Shown in pieces: positions 7,003-63,721 of a stretch of DNA of 64,000 bases. The stretch lies in the NCBI RefSeq assembly GCF_009931435.1, contig NZ_CP043414.1; one strand, written 5' to 3'. Positions within the stretch are counted from its first letter, which is position 1. Each line of letters starts with the position of its first letter. Origin of the DNA: Escherichia coli. Its GTDB lineage: Bacteria; Pseudomonadota; Gammaproteobacteria; Enterobacterales; Enterobacteriaceae. Made by a program: the position numbers and the translations under genes. Below the pieces are notes generated by a model. It searched no databases. It saw only the letters and a program-made list of their open reading frames with translations, and was not told the DNA's origin.

Positions 7003-7283
7003 TTCCTGCATTTCTTTTGTAGGCCGGATAACGCATTCACGCTGCATCCGGCGCTGTTTGCCTGATGCGACGCTTGCGCGTCTTATCAGGCCTACGATTC
7101 CTGCATTTCTTTTGTAGGCCGGATAACGCATTCACGCCGCATCCGGCCCTGGTTGCCTGATGCGACGCTTGCGCGTCTTATCAAGCCTACGATTTCTGCA
7201 TTTCTTTTGTAGGCCGGATAAGGCGTTCACGCCGCATCCGGCACTGGTTGCCTGATGCGACGCTTGTGCGTCTTATCAGGCCT
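7003..7283. repeat. tandem BIME/REP array, three copies of a ~95-bp unit each with two inverted REPs
   Basis: unit ttcctgcatttcttttgtaggccggataacgcattcacgc...ctgatgcgacgcttgcgcgtcttatcaggcctacga seen three times in the sdhB-sucA spacer. Confidence 0.75.
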
Positions 7284-42970: not shown

Positions 42971-43070
42971 TGCCGGATGCGGCGTGAACGCCTTATCCGT
43001 CCTACAAAATAGTGCAAATTCAATATATTGCACCATCCTCGTAGGCCTGATGAACGTAGCGTATCAGGCT
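42971..43070. repeat. REP elements between pgm and ybfP
   Basis: tgccggatgcggcgtgaacgccttatccgtcctac and gtaggcctgatgaacgtagcgtatcaggc. Confidence 0.5.
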
Positions 43071-59213: not shown

Positions 59214-60878
59214 ATGTGTTCAATTTTTGGCGTATTCGATATCAAAACAGACGCAGTTGAGCTGCGTAAGAAAGCACTCGAGCTGTCACGCCTGATGCGT
59301 CATCGTGGCCCGGACTGGTCCGGTATTTATGCCAGCGATAACGCCATTCTCGCCCACGAACGTCTGTCCATTGTTGACGTTAACGCGGGGGCGCAACCTC
59401 TCTACAACCAACAAAAAACTCATGTGCTGGCAGTAAACGGTGAAATCTACAACCACCAGGCATTGCGCGCTGAATATGGCGATCGTTACCAGTTCCAGAC
59501 CGGGTCTGACTGTGAAGTGATCCTCGCGCTGTATCAGGAAAAAGGGCCGGAATTTCTCGACGATTTGCAGGGCATGTTCGCTTTTGCCCTGTACGACAGC
59601 GAAAAAGATGCGTATCTGATTGGTCGCGACCATCTGGGGATCATCCCGCTATATATGGGCTATGACGAACACGGTCAGCTGTATGTGGCCTCAGAAATGA
59701 AAGCTCTCGTGCCAGTATGCCGCACGATTAAAGAGTTCCCGGCGGGGAGCTATTTATGGAGTCAGGACGGCGAAATCCGTTCTTATTATCACCGCGACTG
59801 GTTCGACTACGATGCGGTGAAAGATAACGTGACCGACAAAAACGAGCTGCGTCAGGCACTGGAAGATTCCGTTAAAAGCCATCTGATGTCTGATGTGCCT
59901 TACGGTGTGCTGCTTTCTGGTGGTCTGGATTCCTCAATTATTTCCGCGATCACCAAGAAATACGCCGCCCGTCGCGTGGAAGATCAGGAACGCTCTGAAG
60001 CCTGGTGGCCGCAGCTGCACTCCTTTGCTGTAGGTCTGCCGGGTTCACCGGATCTGAAGGCAGCCCAGGAAGTGGCAAACCATCTGGGCACTGTGCATCA
60101 TGAAATTCACTTCACTGTACAGGAAGGTCTGGACGCCATCCGCGACGTGATTTACCACATCGAAACCTATGATGTGACCACTATTCGCGCTTCAACACCG
60201 ATGTATTTAATGTCGCGTAAGATCAAAGCGATGGGCATTAAAATGGTACTGTCCGGTGAAGGTTCTGATGAAGTGTTTGGCGGTTATCTCTACTTCCACA
60301 AAGCGCCGAACGCTAAAGAACTGCATGAAGAGACGGTGCGCAAACTGTTGGCCCTGCATATGTATGACTGCGCGCGCGCCAACAAAGCGATGTCCGCCTG
60401 GGGCGTGGAAGCGCGCGTTCCGTTCCTCGACAAGAAATTCCTCGACGTGGCGATGCGCATTAACCCGCAGGATAAAATGTGCGGTAACGGCAAGATGGAA
60501 AAACACATCCTGCGTGAATGTTTTGAGTCGTACCTGCCTGCAAGTGTGGCCTGGCGGCAGAAAGAGCAGTTCTCCGATGGCGTCGGTTACAGTTGGATCG
60601 ATACCCTGAAAGAAGTGGCGGCGCAGCAGGTTTCTGATCAACAGCTGGAAACTGCCCGCTTCCGCTTCCCGTACAACACGCCGACGTCCAAAGAAGCGTA
60701 TCTGTACCGGGAGATCTTTGAAGAACTGTTCCCGCTTCCGAGCGCCGCAGAGTGCGTGCCGGGCGGCCCGTCCGTCGCGTGTTCTTCCGCTAAAGCGATT
60801 GAATGGGATGAGGCGTTCAAGAAAATGGACGATCCGTCTGGTCGTGCGGTTGGTGTTCACCAGTCGGCGTATAAGTAA
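59214..60878 (+). CDS. asnB: asparagine synthetase B (glutamine-hydrolysing)
   Basis: start taken at MCSIFGVFDIKTDAVELRKKALE (554 aa) within ORF 59133..60878; N-terminal Cys nucleophile. Confidence 0.97.
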   Translation: MCSIFGVFDIKTDAVELRKKALELSRLMRHRGPDWSGIYASDNAILAHERLSIVDVNAGAQPLYNQQKTHVLAVNGEIYNHQALRAEYGDRYQFQTGSDCEVILALYQEKGPEFLDDLQGMFAFALYDSEKDAYLIGRDHLGIIPLYMGYDEHGQLYVASEMKALVPVCRTIKEFPAGSYLWSQDGEIRSYYHRDWFDYDAVKDNVTDKNELRQALEDSVKSHLMSDVPYGVLLSGGLDSSIISAITKKYAARRVEDQERSEAWWPQLHSFAVGLPGSPDLKAAQEVANHLGTVHHEIHFTVQEGLDAIRDVIYHIETYDVTTIRASTPMYLMSRKIKAMGIKMVLSGEGSDEVFGGYLYFHKAPNAKELHEETVRKLLALHMYDCARANKAMSAWGVEARVPFLDKKFLDVAMRINPQDKMCGNGKMEKHILRECFESYLPASVAWRQKEQFSDGVGYSWIDTLKEVAAQQVSDQQLETARFRFPYNTPTSKEAYLYREIFEELFPLPSAAECVPGGPSVACSSAKAIEWDEAFKKMDDPSGRAVGVHQSAYK

Positions 60879-60919: not shown

Positions 60920-61357
60920 TTATTGAGCTGCTTGTTGATTCTGATATGCAGTAAGGAAATGTTCCGGGTTTGCCACATCACTGTTTGACAACTCATCACT
61001 GTAGGCCACCGACCAGGTCGCCTGCTCATCCGGAATATGCAGGCTGCCATTCCCCTCTTTCAGGCGTAATAACTCAAAAGATTTGCCCTTAATTACGGCG
61101 GTATAGGATTTTTCACCTTCCTGTAATGCTTTCACTTTACAGCGAAAAATCTGGCCATCGATGTCATTATCAACATGCGATACCTGAATGAGGGCTTCAT
61201 TAGAGGCTTTCGGCCCTATCCGCATCATCCACACCACAGCGCCTTCCTGCCCACGATAGCCAAAAACATATTTCCCGATTTCCGGTTTGACCGTATCGGC
61301 AAACGCAGATTGCATGAGTAATAACGCCCCCATCAGCGCCGTCATAAAACGCAGCAT
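60920..61357 (-). CDS. hypothetical periplasmic protein, 145 aa, with signal peptide
   Basis: ORF MLRFMTALMGALLLMQSAFA/DTVKPE with gaggg Shine-Dalgarno ~7 nt upstream; host-like codon usage; identity not recognised. Confidence 0.6.
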   Translation of the reverse strand: MLRFMTALMGALLLMQSAFADTVKPEIGKYVFGYRGQEGAVVWMMRIGPKASNEALIQVSHVDNDIDGQIFRCKVKALQEGEKSYTAVIKGKSFELLRLKEGNGSLHIPDEQATWSVAYSDELSNSDVANPEHFLTAYQNQQAAQ

Positions 61358-61599
61358 AGTATTCCCTCAATAAATCGCCTGAAGTGGTAGCAGAGATGCA
61401 GGCGTAGCGATCCCTGCCCTGTCCTGTTGCAACGGGCCAGTATTTCATAGATTAATTTCCTACCACTATTGTTGAATTCCGAATTTCATCCTGTATGACA
61501 AAAGAATGGCTGTAGGGTGGGGAAAAAACACAAAGTAAACAATAATTGACGAATATAGCGCCACGCTGTTCGCAACCTAACCAAACAGTCACTTTCGAG

Positions 61600-61656
61600 C
61601 AATTTTCCTTGAAAAAGAGGTTGACGCTGCAAGGCTCTATACGCATAATGCGCCCC
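61600..61656 (+). promoter_or_regulatory. stable-RNA-type promoter of the tRNA operon
   Basis: -35 ttgacg (61621-61626), 17-nt spacer, -10 cataat, then GC-rich discriminator gcgcccc; AT-rich tract upstream. Confidence 0.5.
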
Positions 61657-61688
61657 GCAACGCCGATAAGGTATCGCGAAAAAAAGAT

Positions 61689-61765
61689 GGCTACGTAGCT
61701 CAGTTGGTTAGAGCACATCACTCATAATGATGGGGTCACAGGTTCGAATCCCGTCGTAGCCACCA
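61689..61765 (+). tRNA. metT: tRNA-Met (elongator, anticodon CAT)
   Basis: 77-nt cloverleaf ggctacgtagctcagttggttagagcac...ccacca, anticodon loop ctcataa. Confidence 0.95.
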
Positions 61766-61773
61766 TCTTTTTT

Positions 61774-61858
61774 GCGGGAGTGGCGAAATTGGTAGACGCA
61801 CCAGATTTAGGTTCTGGCGCCGCAAGGTGTGCGAGTTCAAGTCTCGCCTCCCGCACCA
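61774..61858 (+). tRNA. leuW: tRNA-Leu (anticodon TAG)
   Basis: 85-nt class II tRNA gcgggagtggcgaaattggtagacgc... with long variable arm, anticodon loop tttaggt. Confidence 0.95.
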
Positions 61859-61881
61859 TTCACCAGAAAGCGTTGTACGGA

Positions 61882-61956
61882 TGGGGTATCGCCAAGCGGT
61901 AAGGCACCGGTTTTTGATACCGGCATTCCCTGGTTCGAATCCAGGTACCCCAGCCA
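61882..61956 (+). tRNA. glnU: tRNA-Gln (anticodon TTG)
   Basis: 75-nt tggggtatcgccaagcggtaaggcaccggtttttgataccgg...; symbol assigned by order. Confidence 0.93.
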
Positions 61957-61990
61957 TCTTCTTCGAGTAAGCGGTTCACCGCCCGGTTAT

Positions 61991-62065
61991 TGGGGTATCG
62001 CCAAGCGGTAAGGCACCGGTTTTTGATACCGGCATTCCCTGGTTCGAATCCAGGTACCCCAGCCA
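61991..62065 (+). tRNA. glnW: tRNA-Gln (anticodon TTG), tandem copy
   Basis: identical to the previous tRNA-Gln(TTG); symbol assigned by order. Confidence 0.93.
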
Positions 62066-62080
62066 TCGAAGAAACAATCT

Positions 62081-62157
62081 GGCTACGTAGCTCAGTTGGT
62101 TAGAGCACATCACTCATAATGATGGGGTCACAGGTTCGAATCCCGTCGTAGCCACCA
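62081..62157 (+). tRNA. metU: tRNA-Met (elongator, anticodon CAT), second copy
   Basis: identical to metT sequence. Confidence 0.95.
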
Positions 62158-62205
62158 AATTCTGAATGTGTCGAATGCGTTCGGCAAATTCACAAACCAA
62201 TTTGT

Positions 62206-62280
62206 TGGGGTATCGCCAAGCGGTAAGGCACCGGATTCTGATTCCGGCATTCCGAGGTTCGAATCCTCGTACCCCAGCCA
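62206..62280 (+). tRNA. glnV: tRNA-Gln (anticodon CTG)
   Basis: 75-nt tggggtatcgccaagcggtaaggcaccggattctgattccgg... Confidence 0.93.
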
Positions 62281-62317
62281 ATTTATTCAAGACGCTTACC
62301 TTGTAAGTGCACCCAGT

Positions 62318-62392
62318 TGGGGTATCGCCAAGCGGTAAGGCACCGGATTCTGATTCCGGCATTCCGAGGTTCGAATCCTCGTACCCCAGCCA
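62318..62392 (+). tRNA. glnX: tRNA-Gln (anticodon CTG), tandem copy
   Basis: identical to the previous tRNA-Gln(CTG). Confidence 0.93.
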
Positions 62393-62399
62393 CATTAAA

Positions 62400-62429
62400 A
62401 AAGCTCGCTTCGGCGAGCTTTTTGCTTTT
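62400..62429 (+). terminator. intrinsic terminator of the tRNA operon
   Basis: hairpin aagctcgc-ttcg-gcgagctt followed by tttgctttt. Confidence 0.75.
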
Positions 62430-62480
62430 CTGCGTATATTCAATGTCGAATGCGATGTTGACACGTCTTATTCTTCAAAG

Positions 62481-62516
62481 TCGGATGCGACGCTGATGCG
62501 TCTTATCCGACCTACA
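62481..62516. repeat. REP element
   Basis: gtcggatgcgacgctgatgcgtcttatccgacctac. Confidence 0.5.
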
Positions 62517-62545
62517 GTTGGCATGCATCCGGCAATGTTGTAAGG

Positions 62546-63721
62546 CTACAACCCTAACGCATATTTCAGCGCCTGCCGTTTCAATACGCCAGCACGCTCC
62601 GCCGCCATTAACCCGAGATTACGCATAAAACGCAGTGGCGGCAGATTATTGCTGAATCCGGCATAAAACAGATCCATACCGCTTTGCATAATGAAGTTAT
62701 CCGCCATACGCCGCATCTGGTAACGCTTGAGGACAGGATAACTGGCCCACGCTTCACCGTAGCTGCGGGCATTCACCAGAACGTCAATCAGCGCATCAAC
62801 ATCGCGATAACCAAGATTCACCCCCTGCCCCGCCAGCGGATGAATGGTGTGCGCCGCATCGCCCACCAGCGCAAGCCCTGGCTGCACATACTGCAACGCA
62901 TGGCGGCGCGTCAGCGGAAACGCACCAGCAGCAAGCGGCGTTACATAACCCAGACGTGACGGGAAATGCTTCGCGATTTCCGCCTGGAGCTGCGCCATAT
63001 TCATATTCTGCAACTGGCGAATACGCGCTGGTGAGTCGTACCACACCAGCGATGCCCAGTTATCAAACAGCGGCAAAAACGCACGCGGCCCGTCCGGAGT
63101 AAACTGCTGCCAGGTGCTGTCGCCGGGATCATTCTCGCACTGTACGCTAATCAACATACACGACTGCGCATACTGCCAGGCATGAACGCCAATTCCCGCC
63201 ATTTGCCGCACCTGCGAATTTGCACCGTCAGCGCCAATCACCAGCTTCGCCTGGATCACTTCGCCCCCCTTCAGTTCCAGTTCCTGAAGATCATTATGGC
63301 GATGCAGAGCAATTAGTGAGCCTGGCACACGTAACGTTACTTTCGGATGCGCTTCCAGCGCCTGCCACAGCGCCTGTTGCAGGACAGTGTTTTCCACCAT
63401 ATAGCCAAGCAACGGCAGCTTCAATTCGGCTGCATCAAACACCACATGCGCCGTTTCCCACTCCCACGTTTCCAGTCTGCGATAAGGATGGCAACGCATG
63501 GCCTGTACCGCGTCCCAGACGCCTAAACCTTTAAGCAATGATACCGAAGCCGCACTAATCGCCGAGATCCGCACGTCAGGCTGGCTGTCAGCGACAAACG
63601 GTGCAGGCTCTGCATGCTCGATTACCGTTACCGAAAATCCGTGCTGAGCCAGTCCCAGCGCCAGTGCGCCGCCGACCATTCCTCCGCCGACAATGGCAAT
63701 TTCCGTTGGTTGATTTGTCAT
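62546..63721 (-). CDS. ubiF: FAD-dependent ubiquinone biosynthesis hydroxylase
   Basis: ORF 62546..63727 with N-terminal FAD motif IAIVGGGMVGGALALGLAQ; start chosen at second Met. Confidence 0.93.
   Translation of the reverse strand: MTNQPTEIAIVGGGMVGGALALGLAQHGFSVTVIEHAEPAPFVADSQPDVRISAISAASVSLLKGLGVWDAVQAMRCHPYRRLETWEWETAHVVFDAAELKLPLLGYMVENTVLQQALWQALEAHPKVTLRVPGSLIALHRHNDLQELELKGGEVIQAKLVIGADGANSQVRQMAGIGVHAWQYAQSCMLISVQCENDPGDSTWQQFTPDGPRAFLPLFDNWASLVWYDSPARIRQLQNMNMAQLQAEIAKHFPSRLGYVTPLAAGAFPLTRRHALQYVQPGLALVGDAAHTIHPLAGQGVNLGYRDVDALIDVLVNARSYGEAWASYPVLKRYQMRRMADNFIMQSGMDLFYAGFSNNLPPLRFMRNLGLMAAERAGVLKRQALKYALGL

Follow-up and report, generated by a model that had tools for sequence, protein, structure and literature searches.

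The metT seven-tRNA operon in an Escherichia coli genome: gene identity, natural copy-number variation and a candidate leader-trailer helix

Identical tRNA genes in tandem raise the question of what kind of locus holds them: an ordinary transcription unit of the host chromosome, an array whose repeats recombine, or a site at which foreign DNA integrates. The question is asked here of an array at positions 61689-62392 of a 64,000-nucleotide stretch of E. coli DNA (assembly GCF_009931435.1, contig NZ_CP043414.1; the whole stretch that was analysed is called the window), which the original prediction, made from the letters alone, had described as a standard seven-tRNA operon with duplicated members that is both recombination-prone and a common integration hotspot. 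ARAGORN and Rfam place exactly seven tRNA genes there, all on the plus strand and with the boundaries that had been predicted, in the order Met(CAU)-Leu(UAG)-Gln(UUG)-Gln(UUG)-Met(CAU)-Gln(CUG)-Gln(CUG), and separated by spacers of 8, 23, 34, 15, 48 and 37 nt. The genes, their signals and their surroundings are as follows.

59214-60878, plus strand: asnB, conserved upstream neighbour (ORFs, annotated homologous regions, tblastn).
60920-61357, minus strand: ORF for a 145-aa hypothetical secreted protein, the only strain-variable DNA flanking the operon (ORF, alignment, searches).
61600-61620, plus strand: A/T-rich, UP-element-like stretch (AATTTTCCTTGAAAAAGAGG) directly upstream of the -35 element (sequence; identical in K-12).
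61621-61657, plus strand: sigma-70 promoter, TTGACG-17-CATAAT, with GC-rich discriminator GCGCCCCG (consensus scan; 100% identical to K-12).
61658-61688, plus strand: predicted 5' leader of the primary transcript (inverted repeat I1, fold, covariation test).
61689-61765, plus strand: metT, elongator tRNA-Met (CAU), 77 nt (ARAGORN, Rfam; identical to K-12 metT).
61774-61858, plus strand: leuW, tRNA-Leu (UAG), 85 nt (ARAGORN, Rfam; sole copy within the window).
61882-61956, plus strand: glnU, tRNA-Gln (UUG), 75 nt (ARAGORN, Rfam).
61991-62065, plus strand: glnW, tRNA-Gln (UUG), identical to glnU, repeat period 109 bp (ARAGORN, Rfam, repeat analysis).
62081-62157, plus strand: metU, elongator tRNA-Met (CAU), identical to metT (ARAGORN, Rfam, repeat family D2).
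62206-62280, plus strand: glnV, tRNA-Gln (CUG), 75 nt (ARAGORN, Rfam).
62318-62392, plus strand: glnX, tRNA-Gln (CUG), identical to glnV, repeat period 112 bp (ARAGORN, Rfam, repeat analysis).
62393-62432, plus strand: A/U-rich linker (CAUUAAAAAA) followed by a Rho-independent terminator, hairpin 62398-62423 (sequence, fold).
62441-62525, no strand assigned: REP-like palindromic elements between the terminator and convergent ubiF, outside the transcript (sequence, fold).
62546-63721, minus strand: ubiF, conserved convergent downstream neighbour (ORFs, annotated homologous regions, tblastn).

All seven genes match Rfam family RF00005, whose gathering score is 29, with 57.6-71.1 bits, and all seven encode their CCA end; across the 64-kb window ARAGORN finds no tRNA genes besides these. 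Direct comparison gives 0 differences between metT and metU, between glnU and glnW, and between glnV and glnX, so that the three pairs said to be identical are so base for base. The metT/metU repeat has a period of 392 bp and reaches 16 nt into the spacer upstream of metU. The Gln UUG and CUG genes differ from each other at 7 of 75 positions, namely the anticodon base and compensated stem positions. Elsewhere in the window, the Rfam scan reports three tandem matches to naRNA4 (CssrE) at 7022-7282 (66-87 bits) and one match to the ES036 (CssrF) sRNA at 43006-43048 (45.5 bits).

A single promoter precedes the array and a single Rho-independent terminator follows glnX, both identical to their K-12 counterparts, and both predicted signals are borne out. 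The promoter has its -35 element (TTGACG) at 61621-61626 and its -10 element (CATAAT) at 61644-61649, with a 17-nt spacer between them and the discriminator at 61650-61657; it matches the consensus at 10 of 12 positions, and the consensus scan finds no other plus-strand site within 61200-62800. This layout is typical of stable-RNA promoters, and its regulatory meaning would follow from that likeness. Judged by position and composition only, the stretch at 61600-61620 is a putative UP element, and transcription would start at about 61657-61659. The terminator has an 11-bp stem, a UUCG loop and a U-tract, with a folding energy of -16.3 kcal/mol (z = -4.4), a stability reached by 0 of 200 shuffled sequences.

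The segment beyond the terminator also folds strongly (62436-62540, -36.8 kcal/mol, z = -3.4). Its palindromes at 62441-62525 are presumably REP elements, to judge by their likeness to the REP consensus, and it is because of this REP-like segment that the 1.4-kb and 3' junction searches described below return multiple places per genome. A 36-nt exact match to the segment occurs on plasmid NZ_CP048307.1, and one of its 10-mers, GTCGAATGCG, recurs in the metU-glnV spacer (62170-62179).

The metT operon of K-12 MG1655 consists of the same seven genes, identically ordered, between the same neighbours, asnB and ubiF, in agreement with the prediction that the array is standard for E. coli, and its tRNA columns, promoter and terminator are identical to those of the window. 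The differences lie elsewhere: the leader A-run is 7 nt long in the window and 8 in K-12, the T-run between metT and leuW is 6 and 7, respectively, the metU-glnV spacer has three substitutions and one 1-nt indel, there are two substitutions downstream of the terminator, and the window keeps an intact upstream 145-aa ORF that is largely deleted in K-12. Of 5426 complete E. coli genomes, 5424 match a 1.4-kb query around the array and 5192 cover at least 80% of it, and the matching loci carry the same annotated neighbours. The locus is thus almost certainly the textbook metT operon of E. coli, a single polycistronic unit whose copy number shifts by repeat recombination, and nothing contradicts its identification as such. 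It is a known operon, among the best-characterised tRNA operons, and its original description is reportedly that of Nakajima, Ozeki and Shimura (Cell 23:239, 1981).

For this strain, the start of transcription, its regulation and the processing of the transcript are carried over from K-12 by the sequence identity of promoter, tRNA genes and terminator. From its one sigma-70 promoter the operon would be transcribed as a polycistronic precursor of about 770 nt ending at the intrinsic terminator; in K-12, one full-length transcript of all seven tRNAs was seen with probes against the 5' non-coding region (PMC2241853). A promoter of this type would be expected to stand under growth-rate and stringent control. 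Following the pathway established in K-12, where removal of the terminator falls mainly to RNase E and precedes the separation of the units by RNase P, RNase E also aiding separation of the last three (PMC2241853), the terminator hairpin would be cut off by RNase E, RNase P would then cleave at every mature 5' end to yield seven units, with assistance from RNase E for the last three, and exonucleases would shorten each 3' trailer as far as the encoded CCA. In this way the operon would be the source of all elongator tRNA-Met, of both tRNA-Gln isoacceptors and of the only tRNA-Leu(UAG), and for that reason essential. The transcription unit is indeed essential in MG1655, because all of the metTU, leuW, glnUW and glnVX genes lie there, leuW being the only Leu gene of E. 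coli with a UAG anticodon (PMC11480407); metT and metU are described as identical elongator tRNA-Met genes at 15.02 min (PMC6265465).

How often the array departs from its canonical form was determined with junction-specific queries run over the 5426 complete E. coli genomes. Of these, 5341 have the glnU-glnW junction (with 40 extra places, at most 3 per genome), 5416 the metU-glnV junction (17 extra places) and 5267 the glnV-glnX junction (33 extra places, at most 4 per genome). The canonical array is therefore found in ~94% or more of the genomes, and at most ~6% deviate; these variant frequencies are upper bounds because some apparent variants may be assembly errors. WB61 illustrates the point: in this 'complete' genome (locus L005, 2920-3026) the annotated tRNA-Leu has a scrambled T-arm and is not called by ARAGORN, leuW is joined to a piece of the glnV-glnX spacer, and the Gln(UUG) gene is absent. 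It is implausible that a cell with this three-tRNA array, leuW being scrambled and Gln(UUG) missing, would be viable; the array was rejected as a real variant and is probably an assembly artefact.

Other variants have clean crossover junctions. Two strains, IPCEC42 from Cambodia (locus L003, 2390-2768) and N18-04097 from Canada (locus L126, 507-884), have four genes, Met-Leu-Gln(UUG)-Gln(CUG), so that exactly one gene is left for each tRNA species; in both, the crossover lies inside a 29-nt 5' segment common to glnW and glnX. The two strains differ in the allele of the upstream ORF and in the ubiF protein, and the four-gene event has therefore recurred. AH21B066 (locus L127, 651-1141) has five genes, Met-Leu-Gln-Gln-Gln, with a single tRNA-Met gene, while DG341-1 (locus L004, 2892-3705) has eight by virtue of an extra 109-bp glnU unit. 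The comparison of copy number across strains that had been proposed as a check thus yields sequenced arrays of 4, 5 and 8 genes, and the loss or gain of repeat units in a few percent of the 5426 genomes upholds the description of the array as recombination-prone: it is so, at a low level. Mechanistically, gene conversion and unequal crossing-over would keep the identical tandem copies alike, and unequal exchange would now and then delete or add repeat units, giving the range in nature from 4 genes to 8 or more.

The same architecture was compared in 120 species representatives of the Enterobacterales. The seven-gene form occurs in 39 species (Escherichia, Citrobacter, Enterobacter, Klebsiella and many Pantoea), a six-gene form with one CUG gene in 30 (Yersinia, Serratia, Photorhabdus, Pectobacterium), a form with one UUG gene in 8, and the minimal set of four genes in 4, among them Sodalis and Fukatsuia, symbionts with reduced genomes; expanded arrays occur in several species. 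Within one genome the Met paralogs are identical in 72 of 99 species, the Gln-UUG paralogs in 64 of 94 and the Gln-CUG paralogs in 35 of 59, with several alleles between species, a pattern that fits concerted evolution by gene conversion; purifying selection could contribute to it as well. In Citrobacter, Pseudocitrobacter, Enterobacter, Erwinia and Raoultella (loci L008, L046, L051, L060, L070 and L124) the two Gln(CUG) copies differ at 5-11 positions, mostly by compensated stem changes, so that copies as perfectly identical as those of E. coli are common but not universal. In Budvicia diplopodorum (L035, 10739-11408) two metT-leuW junctions lie ~620 bp apart within one locus, which suggests a duplicated Met-Leu-Gln block.

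A further element distinguishes the first gene of the array from its duplicate. The metT leader ends in 7-9 nt (AAAAAAGAT) that are complementary to A76 and the metT-leuW spacer (UCUUUUUU), 61680-61688 facing 61765-61773. The predicted helix, recovered both as inverted repeat I1 and in the fold, is 7-11 bp long; it would prolong the acceptor stem beyond a 3-nt ACC bulge, stack on it, and pair A76 of the CCA end. Among 78 distinct Enterobacterales sequences 89.6% of helix cells are paired, compared with 28-62% when the partner is slid, and four of the seven helix pairs show compensatory change on both sides. The covariation score is reached by 0 of 500 shuffles, although sequence relatedness inflates such scores. 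Taken together these data are suggestive of a conserved, covarying leader-trailer helix at metT; it is absent at the duplicate metU. The metT-operon literature searched, including PMC2241853, was found to hold no mention of it. The lengths of the leader A-run and the trailer T-run vary between E. coli strains, and their co-variation is a weak trend in eight sequences only, homopolymer lengths being error-prone in assemblies. It is possible, but rather doubtful, that the helix has an undescribed role in setting the order in which RNase P and RNase E process the first tRNA, or how efficiently they do so, and, as a separate matter, that wild strains can dispense with all of the operon's redundancy, the latter following from natural, non-redundant four-gene arrays that have arisen at least twice.

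Upstream of the promoter lies the ORF for the 145-aa protein, which is intact in the window and in 985 of the 5426 E. coli genomes. In K-12 and most strains, a ~430-bp deletion with GGCCA microhomology at its ends (boundaries near 61005-61009 and 61435-61439) leaves only the last 29 codons. The alternative that the segment is an inserted element was rejected: the alignment shows a GGCCA-bounded deletion in K-12, and synteny of the ORF extends to other genera, namely Superficieibacter and Pseudocitrobacter. Outside Escherichia species, homologues are limited to a few other Enterobacteriaceae, and all that were examined occupy the corresponding position. The protein has a signal peptide and no match in a Pfam/NCBIfam search; its AlphaFold model (pLDDT 81.6) predicts an eight-stranded beta-barrel with a C-terminal helix, for which Foldseek against the PDB returns weak resemblances to 8-stranded barrels only (best E = 0.035, TM ~0.4). 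These are avidin-like proteins, the fHbp C-domain and PliC; no PDB match is significant, and none was taken as an assignment of function. Farther upstream, the genome closest to the window (2017-02-2CC, 99.9% identical over the operon) has an IS621 (IS110-like) transposase between nagD and asnB (L001, 509-1489), while in the window the nagD-asnB gap is ~396 bp, as in K-12, and contains no IS621.

Could the operon nevertheless be, as originally predicted, an often-used attachment site for integrase-carrying islands or prophages that happens to be unoccupied in the window? Many E. coli tRNA genes do serve for integration, leuX, pheV, selC and thrW among them, and the DNA directly upstream of this operon does vary between strains. 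That variation, however, is the ~430-bp deletion within the ORF, flanked by 5 bp of microhomology and involving no insertion; despite this deletion polymorphism, a query running from the promoter to ubiF is covered to at least 80% in 5192 of 5426 genomes. The boundary at which an element would be expected to show, from glnX through the terminator and the REP-like segment to ubiF, is contiguous in 5371 of 5426 genomes (99%), and when both neighbours are traced by tblastn across the Enterobacterales, asnB flanks 103 and ubiF 94 of 125 loci. With the 3' junction intact in E. coli and the flanks conserved across the order, there is no strain-variable island next to the operon. The part of the prediction that denied an integrase or attachment-site remnant stands: the neighbours are asnB, the 145-aa ORF, ubiF and miaB, with no integrase-like ORF adjoining the operon, and no extra tRNA 3' end is found elsewhere in the 64-kb window at up to 3 mismatches. 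Nor do phages supply a counterpart, since 50,697 phage records contain no attP-like fragment with an exact core of these tRNA genes; the matches in the phage database are only diverged phage tRNA genes (72-91% identity), phage records share exact 28-mers with the operon only within such genes (85-91% identity), and a search for distant phage relatives yields phage tRNA genes only. With junction, flank-synteny, phage and stray-3'-end searches all negative, frequent use as an attachment site is very unlikely: the metT operon is a stable core-genome site and is not supported as an integration hotspot.

Still less probable, and by these data barely credible, is that the cluster itself is a mobile or phage-derived array, acquired horizontally rather than belonging to the core chromosome. 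Large phages do bear tRNA-Met, tRNA-Gln and tRNA-Leu genes, but as single genes that are 72-91% identical to those here and stand in different orders. The operon is also present in some 'plasmid' records of PLSDB; the records with at least 90% of the query include, among the matches listed, Mb-sized ones (up to 5.4 Mb), which is consistent with mislabelled chromosomes or chromosomal fragments, and plasmid-borne copies of the operon were discounted, records of that size giving no evidence of mobility. Order and flanks are conserved throughout the Enterobacterales, the GC content of 0.50-0.56 is unremarkable, and the unit is essential, holding the only copies of these tRNAs (PMC11480407). A different doubt concerns the genes themselves, for a CAT anticodon does not by itself distinguish elongator tRNA-Met from initiator tRNA-Met or tRNA-Ile2 (lysidine), and some duplicates might be pseudogenes. 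Both CAT genes, however, are identical to K-12 metT and metU, which are experimentally established elongator tRNA-Met genes. In their sequence, moreover, position 1 pairs with position 72 (G-C), whereas bacterial initiator tRNAs are without this pairing. As for decay, the duplicates are identical to their partners and all seven genes score far over the Rfam threshold, so that no duplicate can be a decayed copy. The chance that either doubt is justified is minute, and the reading of the locus as the metT operon, with two elongator tRNA-Met genes and functional duplicates, is retained.

What the analysis adds to this known operon is a set of population copy-number figures, the recurrent natural minimal arrays and the candidate leader-trailer helix. 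The copy-number figures are of use for the suppressor biology of glnV (supE) and glnU (supB), for models of tRNA gene dosage and for genome-minimisation designs, and they warn of occasional mis-assembly at short tandem tRNA repeats.

Among known systems, the attachment sites at leuX, pheV, selC and thrW are, like the genes described here, tRNA genes of the chromosome; the metT locus is unlike tRNA attachment sites in being without an integrase, a direct repeat of a tRNA 3' end, a strain-variable island or a phage attP match. Its closer counterparts are lysT-valT-lysW-valZ-lysYZQ, argQZYV-serV and metZWV, which are likewise polycistronic, tRNA-only units with repeated identical genes (PMC11480407). 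Several such multi-tRNA units of E. coli are also essential, holding all copies of an isoacceptor (PMC11480407), and they differ from the metT operon in tRNA content. The metT operon is further set apart by its processing pathway, in which the terminator comes off first and separation of the units by RNase P follows (PMC2241853).
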